A stretch of 64,000 nt of DNA from Caldisericia bacterium (lineage in GTDB: Bacteria > Caldisericota > Caldisericia > JAAYUI01): positions 725,845 through 789,844 of the forward strand of contig OY771555.1 of NCBI GenBank assembly GCA_963674785.1, in the 5' to 3' direction. How positions within the stretch are numbered: the first letter of the stretch is position 1; every line of letters starts with the position of its first letter. Positions 14,590 through 59,489 of the stretch are shown piece by piece. The translations under genes and the position numbers were made by a program. The notes under the pieces were generated by a model. That model worked only from the letters and a program-made list of their open reading frames with translations, was not told the origin of the DNA and searched no databases.

Positions 14590-17500
14590 ATGAGAAAATT
14601 TGTAACATTTATGGTCGCATTAACACTTGTAGTGGCGGCTCTGGTACCTGCATTCTCTATCGTCAATGCTGACGGAGACAGAATCAGGGAAGGTGAACCA
14701 AACACACCTGCAACTATGGCTGCAGTCAGGTGGCATAAGGTCGGTTATGATCATGAAGGTAATATGCTTAACCCAAGCACCCTCGATCATACAGAGGTTG
14801 AAAGGGCTGGGCTTGATGGTACCGGGTACAGATTCTTCCCCTGGCAGGATGATGGTGAACAGATTTGGGGAAGGGCATCTGATGATGTGGCTTATGAGAT
14901 GCCACGTTTATTACCAACTTCTGGAAGTCATGACTGGCTTGGTAGATTTGACGCATCTAACTATGATTTCGACTACGATAATTCAGCTAACAACTATGCG
15001 TGGTGGACTGTTTTATACCTCAACATCGAACCAGATTCCGGTAATTCCCAGGAATATAAAAAATGGTATGTAGTAATCGATCGTGATGGAAATGCCTGGT
15101 TTGACCCAGACGGAAAATTCCATCGTTGCGAACTCGATTCATCCGCAGACCCAATGTATTATGAGCCAGGTTCACTTACATACGTCGAGGGTTCATGTCG
15201 TACAAACCCAAAGGCTCTTCTTGACCCAATCCCAAGCAATAACACACAGGGACCATACAACCTTAAATTCGGTTCAAGAGCTGCTCTCGATAGAATTTAT
15301 TTCTGGTGGAAGTATGACACAAATGGAAACCTTGTAGACAGAGTATGGAGACTTGGTTGGTCAGACATGGTCGACTACGATCCTGCACCAAACCTTGAGC
15401 ACGGTGTTTGGGACCCAACAAACTCAGATACATGGTCAGTTGTTTCGTATATTCCAACATATGACCCCTACACAAAAACACATATTCCAGATGCAGATGT
15501 AGATTGGGATGCAAAGCTTGACACAATCCCATTCTCACTCTCAGCAGATCCTGTGTGGCCAAATGTCACAGAGGGCGTAGAGTGTTATCATGATGCAAAT
15601 GGCAACGGTGTCTATGATCCTTATGAGTTCATCTACAGAAAAGGTGCCGGATTCCCAGTAGGTCTCTTCACCTCATCAGTTCAGCCTGGTGATGTGAGAG
15701 TCACAAATGTAAGCACAGAAAATGGAATCTTCAAACAGAACCTTAGAGCAGGATCTGTTGTTGGTGGAGATGAGTTTGATGTTGGTGCAGTACTCCTCCC
15801 ATTCAACCACATGAACCCTCCATCCGGATATCCAACATATGTGCATACACATGGCAAGGGAACAATCGATGGCAGATTTGATGATGGTGAGTTCATCTAC
15901 TGGAAAGGTGCCGCTTCAACAACATTTGGAAACACATGGCTTGAAGTCCCTGCAGTACCAGGTTCAACCGTTATTGCTGTTGCATCAGTAAACGGATTCG
16001 ATCTTGCTGATGAAGTTGCCCTTTACGATCCGCTCACTGGAACATACTTCACCTCAACAATCGATGACATTGATACAACTGTAACTCCTCCACTCATCAC
16101 ACTCGATAATGCAGTTACATTCGCATTCCCACTCTACTCATCATTCTTTGAGATTGGTGAAGTAGAGATCGGTGACATCAGACTTACAACTGTCAACGAG
16201 AGACACAACAACAATACAAGATCATGGGATTGGCACGGCACATGGTGGACAGATGCACTTATCCTTCTCGAGGTTCTCGAGGGTGGATGTCATACACCAC
16301 TTTATAACATCACTGTTGAATCAAACCTTTGGATGGGTGGATACCCAACAAATGGTGAATTTGAAAAGGGTGATGTTCCATCTGAGGCAACTGCAGCACT
16401 CCACTCACCAAATGGTGACATTGTAGCAGCAGCTCAGAGAATTCAGAAAACAACCGTCCTTGACCCAACAGGTTTCGAGTTCGAAGTCCCAGCAACAACA
16501 TTTGAGAACATCAAACTTGAGTATAGAGAATATCTTGGACTTGAAATATTCAAAGATGATGGAATCAACAACAACGTTGGTGAACCACAGTTCACAGTAA
16601 ACTGTGTCCGCGGAGACATTGTTGATGACTATTATGTGTACGACAGCACAGAAGAGTTTGTTGGCGCAGACGATGTCGAAACACAGCTTGACTTTGAATG
16701 GTCAAGACAGACACAGTCATTCTCAAACCTTGAGATGTTTGTTGATGTCAGTGGCGAAGGCGCACTTGGTGTTGGAGAGCCAATCTATCTTGATGAAGAC
16801 CTTTCAAATTCAATCTCAGCAGGCGACCTCAGAATCACTGATGTTGAAGTCGTCAGAGGCGACAGCAACATCATCGCTTATCCATCAGGATCAAGAGTAA
16901 CTGCCGGTGACGCTGATGTTGATTATTTCACAACCTTCCCAGCAATCGGTACTCCAGAACTCAGCCCAATGCCAGCGGGCGTAGAATACTACGACCAGGC
17001 TCATGGATGTGTTCCTCCAAATGATACATATGATATTGGTGAGCCAATCTATTATCAGGCTCCATCAACCGGTATCGCAACACTCTATTCAAACGATTTT
17101 AATAACCAGAACAACCCAACAGGAACCGCACCAAACCTTACATTCCATGACAACACAGGTCCTGGTTCTGCTTTAAGTTATCCAGCATATAGCTTCACAA
17201 ACACCGTTGATAACTGGGGTGAGCTTGACGAAACAAACTCCGGTCTCTTCATTAATGGTGGTGCAGCTACATCAGTTACTGACAGAGAGAATAATGATCC
17301 TGGCGGACAGATTGGAAACCCTTCAGCCGGTAATTTCGAAGTCTGTTTCTTTGATGATAATGCTCCTCCAGTTGGTGCAACAAGATGTAGTGAGCTTTAT
17401 TCCGGTACAATCATCCTTAATCCATCACTTGGCATGGAAGACAACAAGATATTCACAGCTGATGTATTTACAGAACCAAATCCTGCATGTTTGAGTGATT

Positions 17501-20500
17501 GGTGGCCACCAGCAGTCATCTTCAGATATGATAGCCCAAACAGTTTCTATGCATTAACGCTTGTTCCTTATGACGGCTCATATGTATGGTATGATTACTC
17601 CAATGCCGATGGTAGCTTCATTGATAATTTCTATGGTCCAGCCCCAGATACCTATCTTATTAACATCATACATTACGAACCAGCAGACGCTGGAAACACT
17701 GGATATACAGGAACATCAATCTTCCAGACAGAGCTCAATTCCTTTGATCTCAATGATTGGATGAATGTTGAAATCAGAGCATATGCAAACCTTGCTGGAT
17801 TCCTTGATTACACAGATATCCTTATCGGTGGAACACTTATTAGTGGATCATTCCCAAGCTCAATTAATCCAGTAGGTTCACCTCCAGGTGGATTTGGTTT
17901 CATGGCAGGAACATATGATTCAACATATGTTGGAGCAGTTAGCCCACTCTATTTTGACAATGTGACCCTCTCAACATATCTTGTTGGGGCAACACTTGAC
18001 ACAGTCAGACTTACCGATGTTTGGGTAGATGGCACAAAATATCCAGCAGGTTCAAAAGTTCTTGCCGGTGACTTCTACAGACTTGAAAACCCAGTTTATG
18101 GTGTAACAACAGGTAAAAATACAAATGCCAGATATATGGATATCGAAGTATTACCTGGTGACATCGGACTTAAATATGAAATCGACGGCTTCTCACCAGA
18201 AGACGAAGAGTTCAAACCACTTAAGATTGAGAAAACCTCACATATTAAAGTTTCGCTTGATCACGAACTTGAAGGTGTTTATGCAACCGGAAAAGTTATC
18301 GGTGACAAGAGAAATAGACTTTATTACAGACCTGATTCCTTCTATGTAAACACAATCCCAGCCGAGTATCAGGTTGTTTACTCATCACCTGCAGAGGCAG
18401 AACGCAACTTCTTCCACCCACACACTTCAATTCAGGGTGACAAGGTTTATGTCTCACTCAGAGAGACAGATACAAATATCTCCCCATACTTTGCAACAAC
18501 ATATCTTTCCGAGTATCTTGAGGAAATTATTGATACAACAGCAATTATCGATGCAGAAAATCCAGTGTATGAGTTTGAATTCACACCATACAGAGGAACA
18601 ATTGTTGATGATATTGGACAGGAATTACCAATTCTCCTCAGAGCCTATATGGATGATGGTGGAATCCAGACATCACCTGATGACAGCAGATTCTCATACT
18701 CATTCATGCTCGATAAGAATCTGGCCGACAGAACAGTTGACGCTGGAAGCGTAGCTTATTCAGAATACAACTTCATTGACCCATGGCATATGCAGAAGAA
18801 ATGGGAGATTGATGAAGCCTATGCAAACTATTGGAACCAGGCATACACAAGAGCCGCAAGATTTATTCCAAACCCATACGAAGTTGAACACATGGCAGAA
18901 TGTGGTCTCTCAGACAACTACGATTGTTATGGCGTAGAAAAACTTCATGTTGAGCCAGAAGGAATTGAGATTATTCCAAGCTCACCTTGTGTTGACCCAC
19001 TTTCATACAGATATCCAAACATCAGTCTTAAACTCAAAGCCTATGACAACCCGGACGATGTCAATGACCCAGCAGGTTACACAATGGCATTCCCAACCAC
19101 CGAAGATTCCGTTGCTATCGCTACATACAACGTAAACGGTGCCGGTATCAGATATATGTGTACAATGAGAGCATGGAACATGAGTCATACTGTTCCAGAT
19201 GATTTCTATGCCTACTTCATTGTTCAGGTAAATGATGACGGTTCATGGATGGGTTGGAGAATGAATGAAGCAAACCTTCCAGGTATTGTTGACTTCACAG
19301 ACTCATTCTCAGTGATGCAGTCATATCCATTCCTTCAGAAGATGAATAACCGCGGAAACGATTCTCATGATATTGGCGACTATGATTGTTCAGTTGGCAC
19401 AGGTGTTGTTGACCTTTGCGGTTCTGGATGGCCACCACTTGGTGATGTCACCATTTATGATACTTACTCAAGTTATTTCTGTGATCCAACTTGGACATAT
19501 CCAAACATCCCATACTATGGAACAGTTTATCACTATGGTGTAAAAACATACATCACTCCAAAAACTGAAACTGACGAAGGTGGACTTATCTCTATCGTTT
19601 GTCAGCCAATGAATACCGAAGAAGATCTTCATATCCGTGTTCATACAAGCAATGTTGAGGTTGACTACAATAGCACAAACCTTAAACACGGTAACAACGC
19701 AACATACTTCAGATTTGACAGATCAGGTATCCACCAGGGTAGCACAGGTGGTTCAGATCCTAACCAGTACTATGTTCCAAGCGTTTCAAACGTTCACGAC
19801 ACAAACCCACCAGGAATCAGAAACCTTATGATGGCTGAGACAGTTGATTACTGCGACGTAATCACACTCAAGGTTCTCCCACCAGATACTGATCTTAACT
19901 TCAACAATCTCTACATCGTTGACCATGCTCTCCAGTACAGTGATGTCGAATATGCAGGTTCTGCAACAGGTGGAGATCCACTCGTTGTGCTCGATACACC
20001 AGAGAGATGGATTAGACCTGATTATAACCCACTCTGCGTCTTCAGACCTCTTTCTGACGATGAAAACACAGATGTAAGATGTTACCCAGGTGGACAGACT
20101 CATCTTATGAGAGTCGAGAATTCACTTAGAGGTAATGGTTTCAATGCAACTCCAGCACTTTGGAGAAAACAGTTTAACAAACTCGGAACTGAGTTCTTTG
20201 GACTTACCGACTATGGTCTGTATTTTGAGCTTACTAGAGAAGACTCAGGGTACTGGGGTGTTCCAACAACATTCGCAGATGGAATGATCAAGAGAATTGA
20301 GATCACCGGACCGTTTATGACTCCACTTGACCTTGATCCTGAATTTGATTCAATCAAGTACAGATCAGGAACAGCAACCGGATCTATTCTCGGATATCAG
20401 TATAAAGATCTTAGATATGTTCCAATCAAGTATGATTATTCAGGTAAAATTGTTGTCGACACACTCAATTACATGACCTACGAGCTTGGACCATCAGACT

Positions 20501-23500
20501 TCTCAACAACAACCAGCCCTGCATGTACAATTCCTGGCGATTTCATTACCTTCTCAGATTACAACATGTATCTTGCTGTCGGAAGAGAACTTGATTATAG
20601 ATTCGTCGTCAGACCACAGATTAGTGGTATTCAGAGTTCACAGAGAGTAATGGTCTTTGACGAGCTTATTCCAACTGGACCAGGTAGAATTGATATTACT
20701 GTCTGGCTTCAGGACGGAACAAAGAAGATTTTCCAGGATTGCTGTGTTAAGCCACCAGCAGATGGTATTGATGTAGCCGGTATCAAGATTGAAGGTATGC
20801 CACACTTCGTCACTGTTGATGAAGACAATATGCTCAATCTTAAACTTACAGAAGGTTACGGAATCGAGTCAGTAGGACCACCAGCTGAATACGGTGCAGG
20901 AATTCAGGAATATCAAGAGTGTAACGATGCACTTGTTTATGTATGGCAGGATAGAGGAATCTATGATCCAGTGGAAAGACTTTATGATTTCGCTGGTGAC
21001 GGATACTGCTCAATGGCTCCACAGTCAACAGATATTTCCGAAATTTACTCACCATACACAGAAGATGATGATCTCAACTCTGATGGAAAAATTAGCTTCG
21101 AAGATTATGAAACTGAGATCATTGGTACATATGATATTAACACAAACACATGGACAAACGGTCTTATAGATGCAAGAACATTCCATAGACAGAATGGTGA
21201 ATACTCATTCAATGTTCATACAAATACAGTAGGTATCGACTTTGGTTCCTATGGAACAGAAACCGAACCTGATCACGTTATTGCACCTGATGAAACACTC
21301 GATGTAACTGTTACTGCTTACAAGTACGGTGACGACAATAACGACAGAAGCTTCAGACCATTCTGGGGTGGACGTGATACCCTTAATGACTCAGCATTCA
21401 GTCATGAGGTTTATCTTGCAGGTAGAGCATCAGCATTTGTTGAAGCAAGAGAAGATCTCACAGCAACCGTAATTCCTGAGCCACTTACAGCTGGATGTAC
21501 ACCAGAGCTTCTTGACCCAACTGCACCTCTCACATTTGAGGTCAAATGGGCAAACGGTCAGCCACTCAACCTCAGGGATGAAGGTGTTCCAGATCCAAAG
21601 GGTGGAAACGAAGTCAAGAAAAATGATGCTTGGATGCATCTTTTCAAAGATCCACATCCAGATGATCAGTATTATTATCCAGGTCAGATGCTTCCACAAT
21701 ATTACTGGCTTAGAACCGACCTTCATAACGATGACTGGACCCAGATTGGCAACCAGAGAATGTACGGTTATGACACAGATCCATTCAACCCAATCGAGTT
21801 TAGCTGGAATCCAAAAGAGGGTGTTTATGAGTTCGAGGGATTTGTTGCCAACGATAAAGGTAACTTCGAAACGGTCATTTACTCACCAGACAGAAGACAT
21901 AAAGCAACAGTTAATGTAAACGTTGAGCTTCCAAAAGTTTCTTACGATCTCCTTCCAAGACAATACTCTATTAGAGGGTACGATAATGATTCATCATTCG
22001 ATCCAAATCTTGTCTTCCATGTAAACGAAAGTGAAGATTTCGTAGCAACTGGTGCTGATCTCAGATACTATGCAACTGTGCTTACATTCAAAAATGCCCA
22101 GGGTAAATTGATCCAGGGTCTCGCTGAGTCAACATCAGTTTGTCAGGGTGGAGATGGAATGTACGCAAGATTCACTCCATTCTTTACAAGACCTGAATAC
22201 TTCAACTGGGTAAGTGCTCCAAACACATCATTACGCTATTTAAGAAGATATCCACAGCATGCTCAGGCATACAACTATTATCTTGGTTCAGATCCAAATG
22301 GTGGTCGTGGTGTTATGGTTATGATCGCTGATCTTGATGGTTCTGGGTCTGCCGGTGATATTTGGGAAGAATATATGCAGTTCGGATTCGCATATGCTGA
22401 TTCAGGATTGAGAGTTGGTGGAGATAGCGGTCCTCGTGCTCCGTATTATCCAACAATAAACTACATGTACGAAGATGGAACATATAATCATTGGCAAGCA
22501 TGGGATGGACCATATGAAGCTGGTTTCAACTATGCTGAACCTGCTGGATATGGTGTCGGTTGTATTTACAATGAAGAGTATGAAAAACTTTATATGTTCC
22601 CAGATACAAATAGAGACTTTACATTCGATTATCAGGATTCATTGAATATTGATAATAGAGGTCAGGGTCTCGTATTCGTTTTCGTTGATGATAAATTGAA
22701 ATTTGGTGCAACCGTTGGTGTTACAAAACATGCTCTTAAACCAAAATTCAGTGACATCTATGGTGGTACTGATCCATATAATGAATTCTCACCACAGAGA
22801 ACTGCAACAAGATTTGTTCACGTAAAACAGGGTAATGCCGATTATGGAACAAGTGACGGAGTGTACGCTCTCGACTGGGACGCAATGCCAGACAGAGTTG
22901 TAAAAGCTGATTATGTAAATGCTAAGGTTTTCTGGGCGGAAACTAGAGAAGAAGTTGGAAAAGACGTCCTTGATGAGAACAACTACGACCTTGCTTATGG
23001 TGTTGAAAACCATCTTTGGGTTGAGTTCACACCTGCTGATCCAAGAGACAATCCTGTTGTCCAGGGTCTCACAGTTACAATTGCTGATAATGACAAAGAA
23101 CATCCATGGAATGGTACTAAATCCGAGAATTCAATATTCTCAACAATTATTAAGGGTGACGTAAATCCAAACGTGAGAGCTGCTCAGATGTATGTTACAC
23201 CAACAGGTACTGGTGCCGACATCATGGCTCTTAATAAACGTGGAATCACCTATGGTATATTGTTCGATCACTGTACTTCATACGGAATTGTTAACTTCGA
23301 CGTAATTATGTCAATTCAGCTTATTGCTGACTCACTTGAGCCACTTAAAGTCGGTGTCCCAGGAACTCTTGTTGTAAGTGCTCTCAAGACTGCCGGTGGC
23401 GAGCCAATCGAAGGCGCAACTATCCACATCAAGGGTGCAGGCGTTGAGATGGAGAAGAAGTCAAATGCTGAAGGTAAAGCAGAGTTCAGCATCACTCCAA

Positions 23501-24471: not shown

Positions 24472-24495
24472 GTAGTACCATAGATTGACATTTAT

Positions 24496-24548
24496 GCTGT
24501 ACCACCCCGATTAGGGTGGTACAGCCGAGAAAGAACAGATTTATTTAT
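24496..24548 (+). promoter_or_regulatory. conserved intergenic module 1: TTAT + 12-bp hairpin + CGAGAAAGA box
   Basis: Stem gctgtaccaccc (24496-24507) pairs with gggtggtacagc (24514-24525), followed by cgagaaagaacagatttatttat. No U-tract follows the hairpin. Confidence 0.6.
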
Positions 24549-24692
24549 TACGGTTTAAAAAAGATTGAAGATAATGAAGAGATTGATAAAAGAAGCGAGT
24601 AAAGAGAGATTGGTTTACCGTGAAGTTTTGGGTGAACCAAAGGTACATGACAAACTTCGATGCGGGGTTTGTCTGTCCGAAGGAGAGGTTAC

Positions 24693-27600
24693 ATGAGAAG
24701 AACTATAGTGATGCTCGTTGCAGTTACTATGATCATGGGAATATTTGCCCCAGTTCTTGGCTTAGCAAATGTTAATGCTGCGCCAAACAACGAGGTAATT
24801 CAGGGTAACGAACATGCCACACATATCATAGCCCAGTGGCATCAGGTTGGGCATGATGAGTATGGCGACCCCCTCCCTGGTGGAAAATCCTTTCCATGGC
24901 AGCATGAAGGCACAAGCCTTAATAGCTACTGGGGAAGTGAAGAATATGGAATGCCAAATGCTATTCTTGCAAGGGCAAGTTCTGGTATTGCAAGACGCGT
25001 AAGGCAGAATAATGCTGCATCAACAGTACAGCCAATGCTCTGGACAAGAGTGTATCTCACAGTTATGGCTGACAACGGCGCTTCAAGACCCATTGTGGAC
25101 GATAGGGGTGATTATAAGGGCGTCGGACTCTGGTATGTTGTAATGGACACCGCAGGGCAGGTCTGGTTTGATATGGACGGACACTTCCATGATGGAAGGT
25201 ATCTTGCTACTGCCGACCCATTCTCACCATATTACCAGTATGAGGTTGATGATTCTGGCAATTCTTACGGTTCATGTCTTATCAACCCAATGGCCAAAGT
25301 TGACCCAACTGAAGCAAACAATACTCAGGGCCCATACCAGTTCTCCGAAGAGACTTCCACTGGTGAAGAAAATGAGCTCTATGTTGAACCATGTTATTTC
25401 TGGGTGAGACCAAACCTCATTAATAAAGTTAGCTCCCTCGATACAAACACAACTTGCGATGCTTATGCAAATCATACTCTTACAGGTGAGTCAAGGGCAT
25501 GGCAGCTCGGTATCCTCTCAAGACCAGATTATCTTGGACAGGGTATTTCAAGTCCTCTTGGTAATGTCTCAGATGGTCTTGTAAGATCTGGTGAGTGGGA
25601 TGTTGGACAGTCAACCATTCCATTCCTTGCAAATGAGCTTTTTGCAGATGCATTTGGCAACCTCAATAGTGCTGGTCCTGCACCAACAAACGGAACATAT
25701 GATCCAGGCGATCCTATCTATAGAGATGTTGATGGTTCAAACTCCGTTACCGTTGGCGACATAAGACTTTCAAATGTTACTCTCGGTGTTCCTCCCGCAG
25801 TTACAACATTCCTCGGTGGAACCATTGTTGCTGCAGGCGACAGAGACATCAACACATTTGGTGGTGCAACAGGTTGGAGCAACAATCTTTACTCAATGCC
25901 TCCAGGTTATGTTTACTGTGCCGCTGGCACTGGTGATGGAACAGAGCTTGAGTTCAGACATCTTGGAAATCCAACCACAAATGGCGAGTGGTCAGTTATT
26001 ACTCCAGCAGGAACGTCATTTATTGCAGTAGAAGATGCTTCTGAAATCACTGCTGGATCCACAGTCAGAGTTGGACCAAACAACCTTGGTCAGAGCCAGA
26101 TTTGTGTTGTCACAAATGTTTGGAATGCACCACAGGCTGCGACAATGTATAACAACTACAACTCTATAGGTTGTAATGGTTATCACAGATCATGGTATGA
26201 CTATTACATCCAGGGTTTTAACGTTGGTGATTATGTTTATTTTGGTTCAACCAATGGTGGAGAGATGCTTAGAATTTCTGCTCTCTATTATTATGGTTAT
26301 ATGTATCACTATACTTGGGGATGTAGCGGCTCATCATCCTATACTGCTGTCAGATATACTAGAGAACCACAGTTAAATCATGATCAGTATAGCTATAACG
26401 GAAGCAGCTACTGGTATGCTTATGGATATGATGTAATGACAAGAGTAGAACAAGGTCTTCTTCTTGATTGTGTTCTTGGAATCGACTGCGCAGCAGGCAC
26501 TCCTGTTGTTCCAGTTGGTTACCAGCCAGGTGACTTTGTCTACATGCAGTTGGATCCAACAGCAAATCAGATCCAGGAAGGCGATATCCGACTTTCAAAT
26601 GTCGATGTTCACAGAGATATTGCTGGAAACGTAATTGGACATGGTGCTTGGGAATTTGACGCTCTTGTTATGATGGAAGTCCTCTTTGCTGATCCAAATG
26701 ACCCAAGATACCATGGAGCAGTTGGAAACCAGGACTGGAAAACATATTCAAATGATCCTTCATACGATCTTATGGATTCAGACTGGAATGACATCGATCA
26801 TCCATACGCACATTGCATGCCAACATATGATTTGACAGTTGAGTCAGATTTCTGGCAAGGTGAAAGAGTATGGGTTGATGATCCTGCAAATCCAGGTTCA
26901 ATGATTTCTGAATGGCAGGGAGTTATCCCATCCGTTACTGCATGTGCTCTCAGATCACCAAACGATGATGTTGACCCAGCACATCACAGAATCGCAAAAC
27001 AGACAATCCTTGGCGATGAACCAGATGATTTCTTTATTCATAGCGCAACAATTCATGGTGTAACACCTGACTACAGAGAATATCTCGGACTCGAACTCTT
27101 TGTCGATAGTGACTATGACAACAACCCAATTCCAAACCTTCCAGCAAACAATCCTGTGGCACTTGACCTTCATGATAACTATCAGCGTGGAGATGTCTGC
27201 TCAGCATATGCTGGTGCAACAAGCAGAGCCCCAGACCTTGATCTTTGGAGAGACCTTTCAACCATTGATGACTCCAAAGATTATCCGAAATTTATTGACC
27301 TTGATAATCCAGCTGCAATTCCTAATGACCCTGGTATGTATGGTTGCAACGAGCCAATCTACTTTGACCTTGACCAGGATGGAACAGTTTCCCCAGGCGA
27401 CAGACGTGGTTCAGATATTGATATCAGAACCGGTACAGTAACTGAAGGTTCACTTGATAGCTTTGTTGCAGGCACAATTGTTCAGCCAGGTGATGTTGAT
27501 GTAGGAAGAATTCTTTCCAGATTCCTTGATCCAACACCGGGCTTAACATACATGCAGCCTGTTTACAAGTGGTATGATATCCCACACGAAATCTCAAGAC

Positions 27601-35267: not shown

Positions 35268-35314
35268 GTATAATTGTTCGAATACGAATTTAGTTTGAAA
35301 CTTTAAAAAGTTAT

Positions 35315-35370
35315 CCTTTCGGGTGCGTGGATGAAACCCGCCCCGAAAGGCGAGAAAGAATTGATTTATA
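35315..35370 (+). promoter_or_regulatory. conserved intergenic module 2: TTAT + hairpin + CGAGAAAGA box
   Basis: Stem cctttcggg (35315-35323) pairs with cccgaaagg (35342-35350), with an inner gcg/cgc pairing, followed by cgagaaagaattgatttata. Confidence 0.6.
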
Positions 35371-35486
35371 GTTGGTTTGATAAGCAAAAAAATGGACTTC
35401 ATTACTAGATTTATATCGGTTGAAAAAAAGGTTGAAGTGGCCCAAGATTGGCCCCTTGGTGGCTTAAGTCTAAAAGGAGAGGTCAG

Positions 35487-46517: not shown

Positions 46518-46543
46518 TTGTAGTAGATAGGATTGAAAATTAT

Positions 46544-46595
46544 CACTCTGACCCCAAATGGGGTCAGAGTGCGAGAGAAAAAAAGATTGATTTAT
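46544..46595 (+). promoter_or_regulatory. conserved intergenic module 3: TTAT + 12-bp hairpin + CGAGAGAAA box
   Basis: Stem cactctgacccc (46544-46555) pairs with ggggtcagagtg (46560-46571), followed by cgagagaaaaaaagattgatttat. Confidence 0.6.
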
Positions 46596-46708
46596 TTGAT
46601 TATGAATTATGATTGGTTACGCGAAACTAGAAGGAACGTTAGATCGCGGTTTCGATCACTCCCAGGGGGGAGAGTCGTGAACCTTCAATTAGGTGAAGGA
46701 GAGAGCAA

Positions 46709-49700
46709 ATGAGAAAAGTAATAACTACTCTGCTTAGTTTGGCACTAGTTATGGGGATGCTCGTTAGTATTCCGTTACTAACTCCCAAGGACACAGAAGC
46801 AAAGAATGGTAACCAGCCTGCAACAATGGTTGCAAACAGGTTCCATCGTATCGGTTTTGACCGTTACGGACGTGAGTTGCCAGATGGAAAGCAGGTCCCA
46901 TGGCAGAAGGTAGGAGAAATCTGGTGGGGAAGAGAAGGATTCCCAATGCCATTCGCATTAAGAGCGGTTGACAATCCACCAAACTCCATTCCACTTCCGC
47001 CAGCCACAGCGTCATACGCAACAATCGCAACACCCGCAAGTGGCGACATTAACTCACTTACTGGCAGACTTGATGATGAAGCCTTACCATCATCAATCGC
47101 CCAGATCCAGGACTTCGGTCTCTGGTCAGAAGTGTGGTTAACTGTTGATGTCACAAGTGGTGAAGATGCAGCCAGTGGAAATGGACTTACTACTTATAAA
47201 CATCACTGGTATGTTATCCTCGATGAACACGGACAGCTTTGGTTTGATACCGATGGTCGATTCAACGACTGCCGTTATTATGGGTATGCAGACCCTTATG
47301 ATGTGAATTATCAGCTTGACCCACATGATTACACACATGATAACTGCACAGATAACCCAAGAGCACTTGTCGACCCAATCGTCTCAAACAACACACAGGG
47401 ACCATACATTCTTGACCCAGACTACAATCCATTCTCAAACTCAGCTGCAAATGATCTTGGTTTCCAGTTCTATAGTCTCAGTTATGACCTTGCAAACCAG
47501 GCAGCTCCTGTTTATGAATCAAGGATTTATTTCTGGGATGCTGACAAGACCGGTTACAACACAAAGAGACTCTGGAAACTCGGTTATGCTGATATGACAG
47601 ATTACCTTGCAGAAAGAGCACTTGGACCAGCTGGTGCAGTTTGTTCTGGTATCGTCTACGAAGAAGGTCCAGATCCAGATACCCTCTCAGCACTTCAAGA
47701 AAATCTCTATAAGGGGTATGAAGACTGGGACGTTTCGCTCGGTCTTGAGAGATTCCCAGTAAACCCCAATGGCACCTTCATGGACACAGGCACAGTCCTT
47801 CATGCTGAGAACGTCACAGATGCTGCATCATATCCAGATTCTATGACATCCTTCAACATGCAGACACCTGTTGCATACAACTTTGGTGAGTTTATCTACA
47901 GAAAAGCCGGTGCACAGTCCTATTACCCAATCCCTGCTGATGTTGCAACTGCACCTTGCTCATTTGTAGACGGCGGCGATGTCAGACTCTCAGATGTTGT
48001 TGTCACAAGAAATGGATATATCCAGACTTATCCAGAAGATACAGCAGTATTTGACGCTGGTGTTATAGCTGTTTGGGATCCAGGTGATGACTATGATGTA
48101 GGTACATCACTTTGGACATTTGCAAACCCAGCAACTTCACCAACTTTCACCGAATATGAATACTACCATAACCAGAGAGTTGCCGGTGTTGTTAACCCAA
48201 CCCCTCCAGTTGTAACCTCAAGCTATGACCCAGGTGAATTCATCTACAGAAAAGGCAATGGAAGCAGTGAAAGATTTGTTGAGGCCGGAGACTTCAGACT
48301 TACAAACGTCAGAGGTTGGCAGACAGATGACTTCATGCAGCATGATGCTGACAGACCATACCTTATCTTTGATACTGATGGACTTACACGTGCTGGTATC
48401 ATCGATGGTGACCTTCTTCTTATGGCTGAGGTTATCAATGGTGGTTGCCTTTCACCATATTACAACATCGCAGTTCAGACAGATGCCTGGATTGGATGGC
48501 GTGATAATGGTATGTGGATGCCTGTCGATATTGGCTACACAGCAGCAGGAATCAGATCACAGTTTGATACAACAATCAATCACTATAACAGAGTCCAGAA
48601 GAATGCAATGCTCTCATCAAAGAGCGAAGGCTTCTTTGTACCATCAACAGTTTTCCATGATGTAAAACTTGAAGAGAGACAGTTTACTGGTTGGTCAATC
48701 TGGCTTGATGATGGTGTTGATAACAACATTGGTAGCTATAACTACCAGGCTCTTGCAAATCCAAATATGCCTGTCCGTGATACAATCGCTGCAGCATCAC
48801 TCAACCTTTCAAACGATCTTGAAGACAAGTTCTTTGTTGAGCAGACCGTTGGTGGTGAGTCTCTTGAAAAATGGGACTTCGATTATGGTCGTGGATCAGC
48901 GATGGATGACTTTGGTGAGCTTGTTGCATTTACAGATTCCAAAGTAACAAGTGTGCCAACAGATGTTAACGCAGGTCCTCCATATATGTTCTTTGATGCC
49001 GGTGGCGAAGGAATTTTCGGCTGCAACGAGCATATCTACAGAGATATGGATAGATCCGGCGACATCACAGTTGGCGACCTTAGGCTTACAAATGTCACAA
49101 CTTTCAGAAACCAGGGTACAGGAACAAACTCAGGTGCAATGATTGCTTATCCAGCAGGTTCAAAAGTTGGTGCCGGTGATCTCGATGTTGGTGAGATTCT
49201 CACTGCATTCCCTGCAGTTTCCGCTCCTGAAGTTTTCTGTTTCTATGATGTTGCACATCCAGCATCAGGTATCCCAAGAAACTACGAGTATGACCCAGGC
49301 GAAGACATCTATCTCCAGCCATCAGACGGTGCCGGAAGTTATATAACAGAAGTTGATTATCGTTCAGTTCGTGCAACAGAAGTTGACATCCAGGGAAAAG
49401 TTTATCCTTGTGGTACACCTGTTTCTCTCTCGCAGGCACTTTATGTTGAAAACGAAGTCAACATGATTTCAATGGGACATAACGGTCTTTCTAACTTCAT
49501 GGATATGGAAGTTATCCCTGGAGATATCCAGGTTAAGGTTGAAGTTGACCAGGAATTCATGGTTGAGCAGACCTCACACGTTAAAGTTGAAGTTACACCT
49601 GCCCCAGACGATCCTGATGACAAATATCATGTTCTCCTTGAGAACGTTCCAAGATCGTCATTCAACAATATCGCAGAAACTGTAAGAACAATCGACATGG

Positions 49701-52700
49701 CACATCCAGAAGCTCACTTTGAAATTACACCATACAGAGGCTCATGTGACCTTACAGGTTTCGTGCAAGATAGAAAGATTTATGTCCACGTAATCAAAGA
49801 AGAGAGCGATCTTAACGCATATAGCGGTCTTCTCATGCTTCCACGTGACGGTGAATACTATGATCCGTTCTGGAAGACAGTTTATAGAGACCCAGAACAC
49901 CGTGCCTATGCAAACTATGCAAGATACGTCTTTGATCCTGTGACGGATCCAAGATATGAGCTTTATGGAGTTCACTACAGAGAACTTTCAAACTCATATG
50001 ACTGTTATGGAAAATGGGAATCAACAATCCAGCCAGAAGACCTTGACATTACTGCAAACAGAAAATGTCTCACCGTTCTTGAGCAGAGATTCCCGAACCT
50101 TATTCTCACACTCACAAACCACGATAACGAGAATGACGTAAATGACCCTGCAGGTATCAGGTTTGCAACACAGTCAATCGCTGACAGACCACATCGTGTT
50201 AACTACAACGCACGTGGTGCTGGTGTCAAGTTCCTCTTCACAGCAAACAACATTGATTTCACAAAGAAATACATTGTCCAGGTTAATGATGATGATACAT
50301 TCATCTGCTGGGAGTGGGATGACTATGAACCACTTAACATGCTCTCACCACTCGATGTTCTTATGTTCAGAGACATTACTCCTGATCAGACTTGGGGCAA
50401 CGTGCCTTACTCAGTACCAACATCATTTGGTACAAGCGTAACACCTGACCCACGTTATGGTCGTGGAACTACAGGTCAGGCACCAAGACTTCCAGTTGAT
50501 GCAGAACCAGAATCAGAAGCTGAGAAGTGCTCAGTGACTGATGTTGACTGTTCTGGAAAACAGGCTACATGTGACCTTTGCGGAATCGGTGGCGGAGAAG
50601 TCGAAGACTTTATCCCAACCGGTGCTATCACTCTTAATGACACATATGGCAACAGCTATATTGAGTTCATCATCCAGACCTTCGGTGTCCCAGCAATGGT
50701 TACCGATTATGGATACCTTTCAACAACTGATCCTGGTGGACAAATGGTTTGTGCAGTTCTTCCAAGAAATGCAAAAACACCTCTTCATATCAGAGTTACA
50801 GCAGAACAAACAATCTTCAACTTCAACAGTGTAGACGGACAGCTTTGGCCACCAAATGGACCATCATTCCTCAACGACTACACCGGTGGTGTTGACTATT
50901 GCGGAACCATCAGCTTTGATATCACACCTCCAGATCCATACGTAAACTTTGCTGAGCTTACAATGGTTGACCACGCACTACAGTATTCACAGGCCAACTA
51001 CACAGCTGGTTCAGATTCAGATGGATACCACACAAATCCAACCTCACCTCTTGGAGTACCTGCACCTCAGATTCAGATTCCATACAACCCAATTATCACA
51101 GACCTTACAGAAGAAGTCATCTGTTATCCTGGTGGACAGACACATCCATTTAGACTTGATGGACCAAATTCCAATAGAAGATCTGGTTGGAATGCATATC
51201 CAGCAATCAACAGTGAATATTACAATGGAACAAGCAAATCTCAGTTTGTAAAACTTGGAACAGAGTTCTTCCCACTTACAGACTACGGATTATTCTTCAT
51301 CCTCAAAAACCAGCGTGGTGAGCATCTTTCATTTGCTCCAGTAAGTCACTGGATCCAGGATGAGAATGGTAACTATCCAACAAGATATGACCTTCAGCTT
51401 AAGAGAGTCCTCATTGAAGGACCATTCATGAGACCAAAATTCATGAATGCTGAAGATACAAACTTCCTCCTCAACAACCATTATAACGGCACAGAATATC
51501 TTCCAATCTCATACGACTACAGTGGAAGAATTGAGATTTCAGAAGAAAATGCTGCTTCATTCATCGCAAATTCACTTAGCTATCATGGTGGAGATTTTGC
51601 AAACTGCACACAGCCATATATGACTGATTCTGACCCAGTTAGAAACCAGCTTGTTTATCCAGATGATACAAACATCCCAGAGAACGACTATCTCAGACTT
51701 CTCGATCGCTCACTCGACTACACTGCAAACCACTTTGCAAACATCGGTGGTAGACCAGGTGGTGCAAATGATGTATTTGCAATCGATGAAATCATCCCAA
51801 TCAACTATGGTAACATCTCAATTACCGTTGAGCTTCATGATGGAACAAGAAAGATTTATCAGGATTGCTGTGTCAAGCCTCCAGTAGATGGTATTGACGT
51901 ACATGGTCTTGATATCAAGGGTGCACCATCAGAGATCAAGGTTGACCAGGATAACGTAGTTGAAATTGAACTCTTCGAGTACAACGATATTCAGGTAGTT
52001 AACGAATGTAATAATGCACTTGTATTCTGCTGGCAGGATAGAGGTATCAAGCAGATCGGTGCAGACATGAGATTTGGTATCGGTGATGGTTGGATCACAA
52101 ACCCACCAAGAAACAGCAACAAACAGAATCTTGGTTGGCAGTTCCTTCCTGCAGATGACTTAAACGGTGACAGCAAGATTTCATTCAATGATTTCGAGAC
52201 CGAAATCCTTGGAACATATGATATGGTTACCAACACATGGAGTGCAGGAATTATTGATGCAAGAACCTACCAGAGAAATGATGGTCAGTATAAGTTTGAA
52301 CTCACTCAGGACAACGGCTGTATCGTAGATGAAATCGGATTCGACTTCGGTGGCGGTGATGCATCTGGCGGAAGATTTACATTGCCAGATCATATCATTT
52401 CACAGAATGAAGAGCTTCCAATTTGGATCACAGCTTACAAGTATGGTGACGACAATAACGATAGAAGCTTCCAGCCATACTATGAGATCCCACCAGAATC
52501 ATTCTTCGGAAAAGCTGGCTTCTCACATGAAGTTTATCTTGCAGCGACTGCAGCAATTACAGTTACTGGTGAAGATGACCTTGTTGTTGAAACAATTCCA
52601 ACAGTACTTACTGCTGGTGTAACACCAGAGTATGTTGACCCAGATGAACCATTCACATTCCAGGTTTATCATGAAGATGGTTCAACCCCATTCGACTTTG

Positions 52701-55700
52701 TTGAAGAGGGTGTTCCAGATTACACCGGTGCATACAGAATCACAGATGATGAGTTTATCGCAAACAACATCTTTGTAGACCCAAGACCAGACAACACATA
52801 CTACAACGGTTACGATGCTGAGCTTCCACAGTACTACTGGCTCAGATTTGACCTTCAGAACTATGACCCAACATCACAGGGTCAGGGTTGCGATAACCAT
52901 CATATCTTTGCCTCTGAAATTGAAGCAATCAATTTCATCAAGTATGACTTCACCAAATCTGCAGAAGGTAAGTACTCATTCAGAGACTTTGTCGCAAACG
53001 ATGAGGGTAGCTTCCCAGTTTATATCTACTCACCAGACAGAAAACATTATGCCGTTCATGATGTTAAAGTTAGACCTCCAAAGGTAGTCTATGAGGTAAG
53101 TAACGTCGACGGTGATGGTGCCGAATTTACCGTTCCATCGATTGATGGTGATGCAGACTTCCTTCTTACTGCTGCAAATAACAATATGTATAAAGTAAGA
53201 GTTACATGTAAAACTTGGGATGGCGAAAAACTTCTCAAGGGTACTGCGAAGGGTGTAAGTGTTTGCTCAGGATCAGATCAAGATGTCGCAAGATTCACAC
53301 CAGCATTTACAACCGGTATGTCATTTAACTCATCATATGGTGATCTCTACCTATTTGGAACAAGAGGCGATATTGTTACCTATGATCAACATCCATTAGA
53401 TCTTGATGTTGCCTATAGAGCAAGAGTTAGACCACGTATTGGAATTGATACAAATGGTAATGGTGTTGTTGAGCCTTCAAATAATGAGTTCTTCCAGGCC
53501 GGATCGTTTGAGTATCCATTCTTCAATATCTACAGTTACACATCAGGCTCATATAGCAGATTCTACTTCAGAGAAGTAACTGTAAGTTGGGGTGCAGGCG
53601 GCCTTCCACCAGCTTTCTACTACAACACAACTAACCGTACTGACAAAGATATGTATGATGGAAAATTGAAGTACAGCACAGGTTACTTCTGTGATATCGT
53701 CCCAAGAGATGATTATGAATGGCAGTGGGGACCTGGTGCGATCTATAACAGTTCTCACCATGGTGGATATATCTTTGCTGATTTCAACGATGACGGTAAC
53801 CTCTCTTATGCTGACTCACTCTCACTTGATGATAGAGGACAGACAGAGCTCTATATCACAGCAGGTGATATCCAGAGATTTATCGGACTTGTTGGTGACA
53901 ACCCATGGTCTAACACCAAGTGGGGCGATGTATATGGTGGTAACACACCATACCTTTCAGGAATCACTAACTTCTCTGGTTCAGATCTTACAGTTAACTT
54001 TAAGACTGATTCTTATGCTCCAAGAACAATGAAGAGAAGATATGGATTCAGACCAACAGGTTCTTCAAATCCAAGCGCTTTCGTTCCAGCAAGAGACGGT
54101 GCGTTTGCACTTGACTGGGAAGCATGGCCAGCAAAAGATAACGCTCTTAAGATTGCTGCACCAAAAGTAGAAGTGTTCTCAGCTGAGACACATTCGATAT
54201 TTGGATATGAAATCTTCGACTCAAACAATTTCGATATTGTTTATTCAAAAGATAATCACGTCATGATGATCTTCACTCCTGCAGATAGAAGTAATGGTGG
54301 TTACGGTGGAATCTGTAGAGATGTCCCACTTATGCCTGGCGCAAAAGTAACCATGTCTCCACTTAACAGTGGTGGAGCTGCTCCAAACTACTCCTATGGT
54401 AGAACAGTCAGATTTAATCCAAGTGATGATATCCTTGAGAATTCACCTGACCTCAGCAACAACCATGACAAAGCTACACAGTGCATCTCACTCATCAGAC
54501 CAACAGGTGTTGGAAGAAGTGTACTCTATATGTACTACACCCAGCAGAATAACAGATTCATCTACCCATATGAGTACTTCATTTGGAGTGACCTTGATGG
54601 ATATGCCATCTTCCCAGGATTCGATTCAGTGCGTGGACTTCAGGTTATTGCTGACACTGAGTCACTTCTTACCGCTCAGACAACAGGAACCATCAACGTT
54701 AAGGTTGTTGAGTATGGAACAAACCATCCAGCTGCAGGAGCCGAGCTTACAATCGAGGGCGCCGGTGTTTCTATCCCAGCTAAATATTGTAACGATAAGG
54801 GTGAATCAACTGTGATTGTTACACCAACAGAAACTGGTGTAATCACGATTAAAGCAAGCTTGACAGACCATGTTGACGGAATTGGCAAGATTGTTGTTGG
54901 TGCAGATACTCAGCCTCCAACACTCACAATTGAGAAACCAACAAACTTCGAGACAATCAATGACAAGAAGGTTGAGATTGAAGGAGCAACAAGACCAGGT
55001 TCAACACTTACAATCAATGGAAACAAGGTTGCTGTTGACCTTAATGGTGAATTCAAATACTCCGCAGCTCTTGAAAATGAAGGTTCAAACACACTTGTTA
55101 TTAAGTCTATGACACCATCCGGTGCAACAACAATCAGATACGTCACAGTCGTAAGAGACCTTACTGCTCCACAGCTTCTCATCAATGATGACACACAGAT
55201 TGTTGCTGGCGCAACAACCTATACTCTTACAGGTAAGGTTGAGCCAGGCTCAACAGTCACTGTCAATGGTGAGGAAGCAACAGTAGTCTTTGATGTTTGG
55301 ACAATCAAAGTAAACCTTGTTCCAGGTGAAAACACATTCAGAGTTGAAGCAATGGATCCTGTTGGAAACGTTGAAACAAAAGAACACACAGTAACAAACT
55401 GGAATAAGGTCGAAATCGAGTTTGTTGTCGGAAACACAACAGCATATGTTGATGGACAGCCAAAAAGTATGACAGTTGCCCCAACAACAACCAACGTTTC
55501 ATCAACACTCATGGTTGATGCAAACTTCTTGTTCTCAGTACTTGGAGATTCAGCAAGTATCTCACCAGATGGAAATTCCTTCACAATCAAACTTGGTGAT
55601 TCAACCGCAACATTCACAATCGGTTCAGACATACTTAATGTTGACGGAACTCCAAAGAACCTTGCAGAGGCTGTAACACGTGATCCTGCAACAAACCAGG

Positions 55701-55816
55701 TAATCATTCCTGTTGCAAACATCCTTCAGTATCTCAATGCTGAAACAGATGGAATCCTTGATATTGACTGGAATCCAGCAGCACAGAGAATGACAATTAC
55801 AAGACTCTGGAAATAA
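46709..55816 (+). CDS. giant secreted envelope protein, paralog G4 (3035 aa)
   Basis: SD GAAGGAGAG at 46695-46703 and signal peptide MRKVITTLLSLALVMGMLVSIPLLTPKDTEA. This is the shortest copy and lacks the large inserts. The Ig-like plus stalk C-terminus spans about 54640-55813. Confidence 0.93.
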   Translation: MRKVITTLLSLALVMGMLVSIPLLTPKDTEAKNGNQPATMVANRFHRIGFDRYGRELPDGKQVPWQKVGEIWWGREGFPMPFALRAVDNPPNSIPLPPATASYATIATPASGDINSLTGRLDDEALPSSIAQIQDFGLWSEVWLTVDVTSGEDAASGNGLTTYKHHWYVILDEHGQLWFDTDGRFNDCRYYGYADPYDVNYQLDPHDYTHDNCTDNPRALVDPIVSNNTQGPYILDPDYNPFSNSAANDLGFQFYSLSYDLANQAAPVYESRIYFWDADKTGYNTKRLWKLGYADMTDYLAERALGPAGAVCSGIVYEEGPDPDTLSALQENLYKGYEDWDVSLGLERFPVNPNGTFMDTGTVLHAENVTDAASYPDSMTSFNMQTPVAYNFGEFIYRKAGAQSYYPIPADVATAPCSFVDGGDVRLSDVVVTRNGYIQTYPEDTAVFDAGVIAVWDPGDDYDVGTSLWTFANPATSPTFTEYEYYHNQRVAGVVNPTPPVVTSSYDPGEFIYRKGNGSSERFVEAGDFRLTNVRGWQTDDFMQHDADRPYLIFDTDGLTRAGIIDGDLLLMAEVINGGCLSPYYNIAVQTDAWIGWRDNGMWMPVDIGYTAAGIRSQFDTTINHYNRVQKNAMLSSKSEGFFVPSTVFHDVKLEERQFTGWSIWLDDGVDNNIGSYNYQALANPNMPVRDTIAAASLNLSNDLEDKFFVEQTVGGESLEKWDFDYGRGSAMDDFGELVAFTDSKVTSVPTDVNAGPPYMFFDAGGEGIFGCNEHIYRDMDRSGDITVGDLRLTNVTTFRNQGTGTNSGAMIAYPAGSKVGAGDLDVGEILTAFPAVSAPEVFCFYDVAHPASGIPRNYEYDPGEDIYLQPSDGAGSYITEVDYRSVRATEVDIQGKVYPCGTPVSLSQALYVENEVNMISMGHNGLSNFMDMEVIPGDIQVKVEVDQEFMVEQTSHVKVEVTPAPDDPDDKYHVLLENVPRSSFNNIAETVRTIDMAHPEAHFEITPYRGSCDLTGFVQDRKIYVHVIKEESDLNAYSGLLMLPRDGEYYDPFWKTVYRDPEHRAYANYARYVFDPVTDPRYELYGVHYRELSNSYDCYGKWESTIQPEDLDITANRKCLTVLEQRFPNLILTLTNHDNENDVNDPAGIRFATQSIADRPHRVNYNARGAGVKFLFTANNIDFTKKYIVQVNDDDTFICWEWDDYEPLNMLSPLDVLMFRDITPDQTWGNVPYSVPTSFGTSVTPDPRYGRGTTGQAPRLPVDAEPESEAEKCSVTDVDCSGKQATCDLCGIGGGEVEDFIPTGAITLNDTYGNSYIEFIIQTFGVPAMVTDYGYLSTTDPGGQMVCAVLPRNAKTPLHIRVTAEQTIFNFNSVDGQLWPPNGPSFLNDYTGGVDYCGTISFDITPPDPYVNFAELTMVDHALQYSQANYTAGSDSDGYHTNPTSPLGVPAPQIQIPYNPIITDLTEEVICYPGGQTHPFRLDGPNSNRRSGWNAYPAINSEYYNGTSKSQFVKLGTEFFPLTDYGLFFILKNQRGEHLSFAPVSHWIQDENGNYPTRYDLQLKRVLIEGPFMRPKFMNAEDTNFLLNNHYNGTEYLPISYDYSGRIEISEENAASFIANSLSYHGGDFANCTQPYMTDSDPVRNQLVYPDDTNIPENDYLRLLDRSLDYTANHFANIGGRPGGANDVFAIDEIIPINYGNISITVELHDGTRKIYQDCCVKPPVDGIDVHGLDIKGAPSEIKVDQDNVVEIELFEYNDIQVVNECNNALVFCWQDRGIKQIGADMRFGIGDGWITNPPRNSNKQNLGWQFLPADDLNGDSKISFNDFETEILGTYDMVTNTWSAGIIDARTYQRNDGQYKFELTQDNGCIVDEIGFDFGGGDASGGRFTLPDHIISQNEELPIWITAYKYGDDNNDRSFQPYYEIPPESFFGKAGFSHEVYLAATAAITVTGEDDLVVETIPTVLTAGVTPEYVDPDEPFTFQVYHEDGSTPFDFVEEGVPDYTGAYRITDDEFIANNIFVDPRPDNTYYNGYDAELPQYYWLRFDLQNYDPTSQGQGCDNHHIFASEIEAINFIKYDFTKSAEGKYSFRDFVANDEGSFPVYIYSPDRKHYAVHDVKVRPPKVVYEVSNVDGDGAEFTVPSIDGDADFLLTAANNNMYKVRVTCKTWDGEKLLKGTAKGVSVCSGSDQDVARFTPAFTTGMSFNSSYGDLYLFGTRGDIVTYDQHPLDLDVAYRARVRPRIGIDTNGNGVVEPSNNEFFQAGSFEYPFFNIYSYTSGSYSRFYFREVTVSWGAGGLPPAFYYNTTNRTDKDMYDGKLKYSTGYFCDIVPRDDYEWQWGPGAIYNSSHHGGYIFADFNDDGNLSYADSLSLDDRGQTELYITAGDIQRFIGLVGDNPWSNTKWGDVYGGNTPYLSGITNFSGSDLTVNFKTDSYAPRTMKRRYGFRPTGSSNPSAFVPARDGAFALDWEAWPAKDNALKIAAPKVEVFSAETHSIFGYEIFDSNNFDIVYSKDNHVMMIFTPADRSNGGYGGICRDVPLMPGAKVTMSPLNSGGAAPNYSYGRTVRFNPSDDILENSPDLSNNHDKATQCISLIRPTGVGRSVLYMYYTQQNNRFIYPYEYFIWSDLDGYAIFPGFDSVRGLQVIADTESLLTAQTTGTINVKVVEYGTNHPAAGAELTIEGAGVSIPAKYCNDKGESTVIVTPTETGVITIKASLTDHVDGIGKIVVGADTQPPTLTIEKPTNFETINDKKVEIEGATRPGSTLTINGNKVAVDLNGEFKYSAALENEGSNTLVIKSMTPSGATTIRYVTVVRDLTAPQLLINDDTQIVAGATTYTLTGKVEPGSTVTVNGEEATVVFDVWTIKVNLVPGENTFRVEAMDPVGNVETKEHTVTNWNKVEIEFVVGNTTAYVDGQPKSMTVAPTTTNVSSTLMVDANFLFSVLGDSASISPDGNSFTIKLGDSTATFTIGSDILNVDGTPKNLAEAVTRDPATNQVIIPVANILQYLNAETDGILDIDWNPAAQRMTITRLWK

Positions 55817-55850
55817 TCTTCCAACCTTGTAAGAATTACTCTTGAACTAA

Positions 55851-57737: not shown

Positions 57738-57741
57738 CGAG

Positions 57742-59460: not shown

Positions 59461-59489
59461 ACATAATTCATTTTGAAGTTTTAAGTCAC

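Follow-up and report, generated by a model that had tools for sequence, protein, structure and literature searches.

The 64,000-nucleotide window analysed here (contig OY771555.1 of the Caldisericia bacterium assembly GCA_963674785.1, positions 725,845 to 789,844) carries four consecutive genes, G1 to G4, encoding giant secreted proteins of a single family. In kind, their sequences mark them as giant, probably wall-anchored bacterial surface proteins, predicted to be largely beta-sandwich, whilst the family itself appears to be new. By sequence searches it is phylum-restricted, almost confined to Caldisericota, and its members already sit uncharacterised in databases under generic names. The reading we favour, which we put at roughly even odds, is that G1-G4 are anciently diverged wall-anchored giant surface proteins with an accessory function in adhesion or interaction.

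All four genes are intact open reading frames (ORFs) on the + strand: G1 at 14590..24471 (3293 aa), G2 at 24693..35267 (3524 aa, ORF listed from 24660), G3 at 35487..46517 (3676 aa, ORF listed from 35448) and G4 at 46709..55816 (3035 aa). Translation from the ATG starts met no internal stops and reproduced the strand, lengths, total of 13,528 codons and 64% share of the window given in an earlier note on this DNA. As that note had also reported, a Shine-Dalgarno sequence, AAGGAGAG, lies 4-5 nt 5' of each ATG and each protein begins with a signal peptide. Read directly from the translations, all four N-termini have the K/R-rich n-region, hydrophobic core and A-x-A-like cleavage site of a Sec signal peptide (aa 1-27 in G1). 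The GC content of the giant genes is 42-45%.

The four proteins are collinear. Pairwise BLASTP gave 31-36% identity over ~1,850-2,400 aligned columns, which take in the C-terminal ~1,800-2,150 residues of either protein, and 26-36% identity in N-terminal blocks. Alignments reached E = 0 and the blocks followed in the same order for all pairs, in agreement with the whole-length collinearity described before. The coordinates previously listed for the anchor motifs NNTQGPY, YPGGQTH, QDCC, AYKYGDD..DR.F, PQYYW, PDR(R/K)H and LDW(D/E)A.P were all exact, and G1 and G4 are indeed identical at 37/39 nt at the AYKYGDD anchor (AYKYGDDNNDRSF). In the DNA of the array, direct repeats formed four-copy in-register families of 60-87% identity, spaced by ~10-11 kb, which is one gene length. 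The remaining DNA repeats were short families derived from an internal N-terminal motif (D4, 10 copies; D14, 6 copies), and TRF found no tandem repeats in the array. On sequence grounds a chance origin of the similarity among G1-G4 is excluded, because alignments reach E = 0 and 109 family ORFs were found in 71 independent loci (see below).

Curated libraries recognised only the C-terminal ends of these proteins. Pfam matches to G1-G4 were confined to the last ~350 residues, where three or four Ig-like domains are followed by a Cu_amine_oxidN1 stalk domain (PF07833). The set comprises a Big_1/CarboxypepD_reg-like Ig domain, one or two Glucodextran_B domains, Big_13 and Cu_amine_oxidN1. At each of the four C-termini PF07833, Glucodextran_B and Ig-like domains exceed the Pfam cut-offs. 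PF07833 scored 57.9 bits in G1, 42.9 in G2, 29.6 in G3 and 36.2 in G4, against a gathering cut-off of 24.2. In G1, the Ig-like domains span aa 2932-3170 and the stalk domain, a putative non-covalent wall anchor, aa 3180-3267 (24127..24390, + strand). The other stalk domains lie at aa 3452-3518 in G2, 3563-3671 in G3 and 2932-3012 in G4, and the architecture of these three proteins is as in G1. The Ig-like repeats and C-terminal stalk domain that the earlier note had named were thus matched by Pfam in all four proteins. The lectin-like inserts it had also listed found no backing in any profile search (Pfam, G1-G4 and 15 relatives). In the C-terminal Ig region of G3, NF033510 (Ca_tandemer) scored 36.6 bits, below its cut-off of 50.

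The ~2,900 residues upstream of these C-terminal domains had no Pfam, NCBIfam or PDB-sequence match. The NCBIfam scan, which covered G1 and G3, returned nothing for G1 and nothing for the core, and phmmer searches of G1 and G3 against all PDB chain sequences gave nothing significant. Family profiles of the N-terminus (43 sequences) and of two parts of the core (core 1, 51 sequences; core 2, 43) matched nothing in PDB sequences below E ~0.2; matches to proteasome beta and ACAP1 were rejected as noise. Among 15 diverse full-length relatives, some with insertions of at least 500 residues, Pfam again recognised C-terminal domains only. The claim that the core lies outside known families therefore held even with profiles of 43-51 sequences, and profile and fold searches linked it to no characterised adhesin, S-layer or enzyme family.

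Several specific identities were tried and rejected. The last 200 residues of G1-G4 contain no LP.[TSA]G motif for sortase anchoring, their C-termini being stalk domains, and no SLH match was found by Pfam in G1-G4 or the 15 relatives. No C[GLIVM]EQ (CxEQ) thioester motif is present in any of the four. The multihaem cytochrome motif CxxCH is absent from G1, G2 and G4 and occurs once in G3, which we attribute to chance. A dockerin reading rested on a single PDB sequence match, to 5m2s, at E 0.25.

The most conserved part of the family, according to a conservation profile of 106 family sequences, is a non-repetitive core spanning aa 1440-2900 of G1 (18907..23289, + strand). Its motifs are DNPNDVNDP, FIVQVNDDG, D.DCS, VDHALQ, YPGGQTH, LGTEF, GPFM, YDYSG, QDCC, WQDRG, an EF-hand-like DLNSDGKISFED loop, IDARTF, AYKYGDDNNDR, SHEVYLAG, LTAG, PQYYWLRTDLHN, PDR(R/K)H, LDW(D/E)A and TPTGTG. 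Each protein has two EF-hand-like DxNxDGxIxxxD loops where 0.05 would be expected, supporting at the motif level the calcium loops proposed earlier. When 120-aa windows of the 106-sequence alignment were compared by hhalign, those within aa 1200-2900 did not match each other. The profile-profile comparison gave only weak hints that aa ~2010-2090 and ~1170-1220 resemble a C-terminal Ig-like domain.

An AlphaFold2 model of G1 aa 1440-2470, built from a 24-sequence alignment, was almost exclusively beta (mean pLDDT 64, pTM 0.68). Confident beta-sandwich-like units were predicted around aa 1460-1575, 1640-1710, 1875-1912, 2020-2090, 2276-2320 and 2403-2447, and several motif loops, D.DCS and YPGGQTH among them, were of low confidence. 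Foldseek matched the model in the PDB to large multi-beta-sandwich proteins only, namely bacterial and animal alpha-2-macroglobulins, complement C3/C5, integrin alpha legs, a mastigoneme and Ig chains, at a TM of ~0.1 (0.07-0.13) and 6-10% identity. In BFVD it matched generic Ig-like phage proteins. Because the model is almost all beta and its matches are only to multi-beta-sandwich proteins, the core probably consists of beta-sandwich domains, highly diverged and with long loops, arranged as a string or bundle. Judged from this model, it is not a demonstrably new fold.

From its N-terminus, G1 consists of the signal peptide, an N-terminal block, module copies, a private insert, the core, the Ig-like domains and the stalk. 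In the 106-sequence profile, occupancy and conservation are lower across the N-terminal half, which carries private inserts such as that at aa ~850-1150 of G1. Within it, hhalign found strong internal similarity between aa ~300-440 and ~700-830 of G1 (probability 99%); weaker copies lie near aa 520 and 1140. The only other strong internal similarity, in 120-aa profile-profile windows, was among the C-terminal Ig domains. The underlying module of ~100 aa (aa 337-440 and 727-823 in G1, by profile-profile comparison and HMMs) has the signature E.IY.D.D..G.V..GD.RLT.V ... Y..G..V..GD.DVG and no Pfam or PDB match. Module HMMs found two full and one or two partial copies in each of G1-G4 (2-4 in total). 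Self-BLAST for internal repeats found nothing, and the module was visible only by hhalign. The earlier note's description of the proteins as largely non-repetitive therefore applies to the core (aa ~1200-2900), which is repeat-free, and fails at the profile level for the N-terminal half, with its 2-4 module copies. An AlphaFold model of G1 aa 28-850 from 10 sequences reached a pLDDT of 40.6 and was not used further.

We then determined the range of the family. The earlier note had proposed an anchor-motif search for taxonomic range and synteny, and a degenerate-motif scan of GTDB species-representative genomes yielded 71 independent loci with 109 family ORFs, 1-8 per metagenome-assembled genome (MAG). 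The family was seen in 22 species-level MAGs. All 71 loci belong to Caldisericota/Caldisericia/Caldisericales MAGs or unclassified 'bacterium' bins, bar one with a Calditrichota label. In that locus (L007, DAIMET010000033.1), the family gene and its PEGA/cohesin neighbour cluster with Caldisericota MAGs L008-L010. The label is probably the result of mis-binning or mislabelling rather than a sign of a second phylum.

Protein databases gave the same range. A word-indexed search of 5.8 billion proteins with three tiles returned 8, 17 and 6 relatives, all from Caldiserica/Caldisericia MAGs or unnamed metagenome contigs. A HMMER profile of G1 aa 1745-2900 and relatives, searched against 1.84 billion cluster representatives, found 87 proteins at E <=0.001. 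The named members of ten clusters that were looked up (P0025-P0034) are from Caldisericia and bear the names 'hypothetical protein', 'stalk domain-containing protein' or 'Ig-like domain-containing protein'. Caldisericum exile had no family match in the genome scan or among these named database members. Literature searches found no published description of giant Caldisericota proteins. The family had been called unrecognised; this is right in that its core has no curated family, and wrong in that the proteins are not orphans, with generically named members in public databases. One database entry, P0008 (812 aa, ENA), is of the family over its first ~600 residues, beyond which it has NFACT/FbpA domains (PF05833, PF05670); a chimera, either of the contig or of the gene call, is the probable source.

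The conserved core splits the family into ~11 subfamilies at >=45% identity. G1, G2, G3 and G4 each form one orthogroup with members in 6-7 species, and the same order is kept. Orthologues are 48-67% identical to the window protein for G1, 48-70% for G2, 47-69% for G3 and 53-76% for G4. At least five other Caldisericota species have the order G1-G2-G3-G4 behind a secreted NHL/thioredoxin-like gene. Since each orthogroup spans 6-7 species in the same order, these sequences place the four-fold duplication before the splits among the carrier species. A second conserved array type, found in loci L017, L032, L039 and L065, has members of three distinct subfamilies in fixed order; one of these members has a large private insertion and a length of up to 3,732 aa. 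The largest copy number was at least eight family genes, taking up 71 kb, on one 2.17 Mb contig.

Homologues outside Caldisericota were found only among archaeal surface proteins. The search of 1.84 billion proteins recovered P0081 (1616 aa, E 6e-19), which has PGF-CTERM, DUF4198 and CarboxypepD_reg domains, and P0098 (WP_247139555.1, from Methanonatronarchaeum sp. AMET6-2, E 5e-7), which also has DUF4198 and PGF-CTERM, the PGF motif being read in the sequence. Archaeal S-layer glycoproteins use anchors of the PGF-CTERM class. In local hmmsearch, both proteins matched the family in 3-5 collinear stretches, and ITGP, WQD, IDAR..NG.Y.F, AY.Y.D, LTAG, DRKH, TA...R.Y.VTV, PAD and TPTGTG are common to the archaeal proteins and the family. 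The homology covers the core from aa ~1860 of G1 onwards. Significant E-values and collinear stretches with common motifs thus indicate, at the level of sequence, that the second half of the core is distantly homologous to uncharacterised archaeal surface proteins. The archaeal proteins differ in being ~1,400-1,600 aa long, without the long loops and without the N-terminal two-thirds, and they end in a PGF-CTERM anchor whereas the giants end in a stalk domain. Pfam found neither PGF-CTERM nor DUF4198 in G1-G4. A phmmer search of P0081 against PDB sequences gave nothing significant.

Among known systems, stalk-domain proteins are the nearest relatives as regards the anchor: the giants resemble the PF07833 wall-associated proteins of Gram-positives in having a Sec signal peptide and a stalk domain that passes the Pfam cut-off, and NCBI names some family members 'stalk domain-containing protein'. 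The Gram-positive proteins typically have a few hundred residues and a known hydrolase or other domain, whereas the giants have ~3,000 residues, the rest of which falls in no known family. Repeat-type giant adhesins (RTX/LapA/SiiE/Bap, Ca_tandemer) resemble them in size, extracellular location, Ig-like domains and Ca-binding loops. Unlike those adhesins, the giants have no tandem near-identical repeats, carry a Sec signal instead of using a type I secretion system (T1SS), possess a ~2,900-residue ectodomain outside curated families and are encoded in arrays of distinct paralogs. By description, the closest genomic analogue of the array is in an unrelated phylum. Apilactobacillus kunkeei Giant1-5 are extracellular proteins of 3,000-8,000 aa, encoded by consecutive genes that occupy several percent of a small genome and have positional homologues across related species (PMC12863079). 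Giant1-4 have an N-terminal beta-solenoid like that of serine-rich repeat proteins and form long elongated structures (PMC12863079); no such beta-solenoid domain was detected in G1-G4.

PF07833 has been treated as a wall-binding module on the basis of prediction (PMC4137172; bioRxiv 10.64898/2026.09.23.753664). On the favoured reading, Sec would export G1-G4 and, by analogy with other stalk proteins, the C-terminal stalk domain would hold them non-covalently on the cell wall. The Ig-like domains would space the ectodomain from the wall, and the conserved Ca2+-stabilised beta-sandwich core would form a rigid body. The variable N-terminal half, with its module copies and lineage-specific insertions, would face outward as an interaction surface that, in anaerobic sludge or sediment, binds polymers, particles or adjacent cells. 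The secreted CxxC protein encoded upstream may handle the conserved cysteines (QDCC, D.DCS..C..C). The gene set is operon-like, and we infer its function. As the four paralogs are kept together in fixed order, they probably act as one set and possibly form a heteromeric surface structure. In favour of the reading stand the signal peptides and Shine-Dalgarno sites, the C-terminal Pfam domains, the recurrence of PF07833 in three downstream proteins and in a PEGA/cohesin protein beside family genes in 14 loci, the all-beta core model with its extracellular multi-beta-sandwich matches, the excess of EF-hand-like loops and the variable, module-bearing N-terminal half. The orthogroups and arrays, the high copy number, the archaeal surface relatives and the conserved NHL/CxxC partner count for it as well.

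Several observations weigh against this reading. Pfam found no ligand-binding, lectin, CBM or enzyme domain in G1-G4 or the 15 relatives, and the proposed N-terminal binding tip is without structural support (model pLDDT 40.6). Wall binding by PF07833 is an annotation-level attribution carried over from other phyla. The giant genes are only putatively co-transcribed, and hairpins separate them (see below). Finally, the orthologues have stayed rather similar (47-76%) and do not vary in repeat number as adhesins typically do, which suits a structural role equally well.

Such a structural role, in which the family forms an outer layer or sheath (S-layer-like) and G1-G4 are subunits of one lattice or fibre, is the strongest competitor, though we regard it as rather unlikely. 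A fixed set of four distinct paralogs, together with the second, three-gene array type, favours it, and the non-repetitive, well conserved core and the genomic investment (71 kb of a 2.17 Mb contig) fit it too. So does the fact that the sole non-Caldisericota homologues are archaeal PGF-CTERM surface proteins. Electron microscopy of Caldisericum exile shows an outer-membrane-like envelope in an organism lacking BamA (PMC4104836), which also speaks for it. Set against this, S-layer proteins are usually single and far smaller, and Pfam found no lattice-forming or SLH domain. An adhesion or interaction role is favoured over envelope building because the family was detected in only 22 species-level MAGs and had no match in C. 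exile in the genome scan or among the named database members, so that it looks accessory rather than universal in the phylum. A more elaborate proposal, which we consider improbable, is that the family and its stalk-domain partners build the BamA-less, outer-membrane-like envelope or sheath of Caldisericota. Here, the core would share ancestry with archaeal PGF-CTERM (S-layer-class) proteins and the four-paralog operon would encode a heteromeric lattice matured by the NHL/CxxC oxidoreductase. If true, this would make the family a cross-domain (bacterial-archaeal) envelope module.

It is very doubtful that the core is a wall-tethered extracellular enzyme, such as a polymer hydrolase, or an alpha-2-macroglobulin-like protease trap. 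Invariant H, D, E and C residues in VDHALQ, YPGGQTH, SHEVYLAG, PDRKH and QDCC could suggest catalysis; several of these motifs are not kept in the archaeal homologues, and neither Pfam nor NCBIfam matched an A2M or enzyme family. Alpha-2-macroglobulins, both bacterial and animal, and complement C3/C5 are among the top Foldseek matches, and one of 15 family members has a weak bMG3 match (Pfam, E 7e-4). The bacterial forms (ECAM, 5a42; Salmonella, 4u4j) gave the best matches and are likewise large, extracellular and made of many beta-sandwich domains. The similarity is only at TM ~0.12 (8-9% identity), however, which amounts to a generic beta-sandwich likeness; G1-G4 lack the CxEQ thioester motif and A2M Pfam domains, and profile searches against PDB sequences were empty. 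We give still less credence, practically none, to the idea that the array is an artefact, whether of assembly (a possibility the earlier note had raised) or of annotation, through a repeat that was collapsed or duplicated or through long ORFs that are spurious. Paralogs only ~35% identical are too diverged to come from mis-assembly, independent MAGs keep intact orthologues in the same order, and 87 homologues are present in protein databases. GCA_041391325.1 (L072) is colinear with window positions 9209-27711 at 85.4% nt identity, across the NHL-G1-G2 junctions. The only hint of an artefact comes from this same MAG (JAWKOF010000001.1, 2019-25162), where the G1 orthologue was called as ~8 or more short ORFs and aligned with 127 gap openings. 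This reflects either an indel-rich assembly or real pseudogenisation.

To our knowledge, Caldisericota have a single cultured species. The family gives a concrete target for proteomics and cryo-electron tomography (cryo-ET) of their cell surface, on which up to ~3% of a 2 Mb genome is spent in the form of giant secreted proteins. It also offers ~15-20 uncharacterised domain families for structure determination and, unexpectedly, connects surface proteins of bacteria with those of archaea. It shows, too, that bacterial surface proteins can be very large without being repeat expansions.

The gene neighbourhood adds candidate partners. Upstream of G1, an NHL/CxxC gene at 11380..14142 (+ strand; Pfam NHL E 7e-12) encodes a secreted protein of ~920 aa. 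Its ORF is listed from a TTG at 11212; M57 is the likely start and is followed by a signal peptide. Residues 680-798 have a weak Omp28-like Pfam match and hold an invariant WCxxC motif, whose cysteines are the only invariant ones in eight orthologues of the protein. We take this region to be thioredoxin-like. In seven loci (L001-L006, L048) this gene immediately precedes the G1 orthologue, and its product may be an extracytoplasmic thiol-disulfide partner for the giants' cysteine motifs.

Downstream of G4, three genes at 55980..61192 (+ strand) encode secreted proteins of 550-585 aa with 1-4 Cu_amine_oxidN1 domains (Pfam E 1e-35, 6e-31 and 4e-17). They have visible signal peptides and share only 20-28% identity. 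Conservation is partial, with a homologue for the first two found after G4 in L020, and the three proteins are candidate co-anchored surface partners. Seven stalk-domain proteins are encoded in a stretch of 47 kb, which suggests that Cu_amine_oxidN1 is the general surface anchor of the organism. Across the family, the commonest neighbour is a protein of ~700-1,040 aa with Cu_amine_oxidN1, two PEGA domains and a cohesin, found in 14 loci (e.g. L037:18804-21917). No matching dockerin was identified in the giants beyond the 5m2s match mentioned above.

GC-rich hairpins separate the giant genes. A 12-bp hairpin at 24496..24525, 25 nt after the G1 stop (fold z-score -6.4), and another at 35315..35350 after the G2 stop are each followed by GAGAAAGAA..GATTTAT. 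After the G3 stop, a 12-bp hairpin at 46544..46571 is followed by the same motif, GAGAAAGAA..GATTGATTTAT. All three are on the + strand and have no U-tract. The sole U-tract terminator of the array is a canonical intrinsic one after G4 (55850..55889, + strand), with a 13-bp stem. Orthologous junctions in L048, L022, L020, L004, L012 and L002 also have GC-rich hairpins of 10-14 bp, species-specific in sequence and without a U-tract, and the motif GAGAAAGA..GATTGATTTAT lies 3' of the hairpin in most junctions examined. Judging by sequence, hairpin and motif may serve to process or stabilise the mRNA, or may form an unusual terminator-promoter unit. Rfam had no matches in the whole window, and a sigma-70 promoter scan gave no more matches than in shuffled sequence.

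The upstream GNAT, MatE, radical-SAM and FAD genes were rejected as parts of the array, since they are not kept beside family genes across the 71 loci. Only in L072, a closely related but distinct species (85% nt identity), do the radical-SAM and FAD genes appear again. In the window, the FAD-dependent (geranylgeranyl-reductase-like) and radical-SAM ORFs lie on the - strand at 9231-11226 and, as listed, overlap by ~150 nt. Four genes in tandem occupy 150-4292 on the + strand, and each encodes a protein of 344-347 aa with two GNAT acetyltransferase domains. Their stops and starts overlap at 1184/1187, 2218/2221 and 3258/3261, and their pairwise identity is 41-64%. The GC content of this region is 34-36%, against 42-45% in the giant genes.

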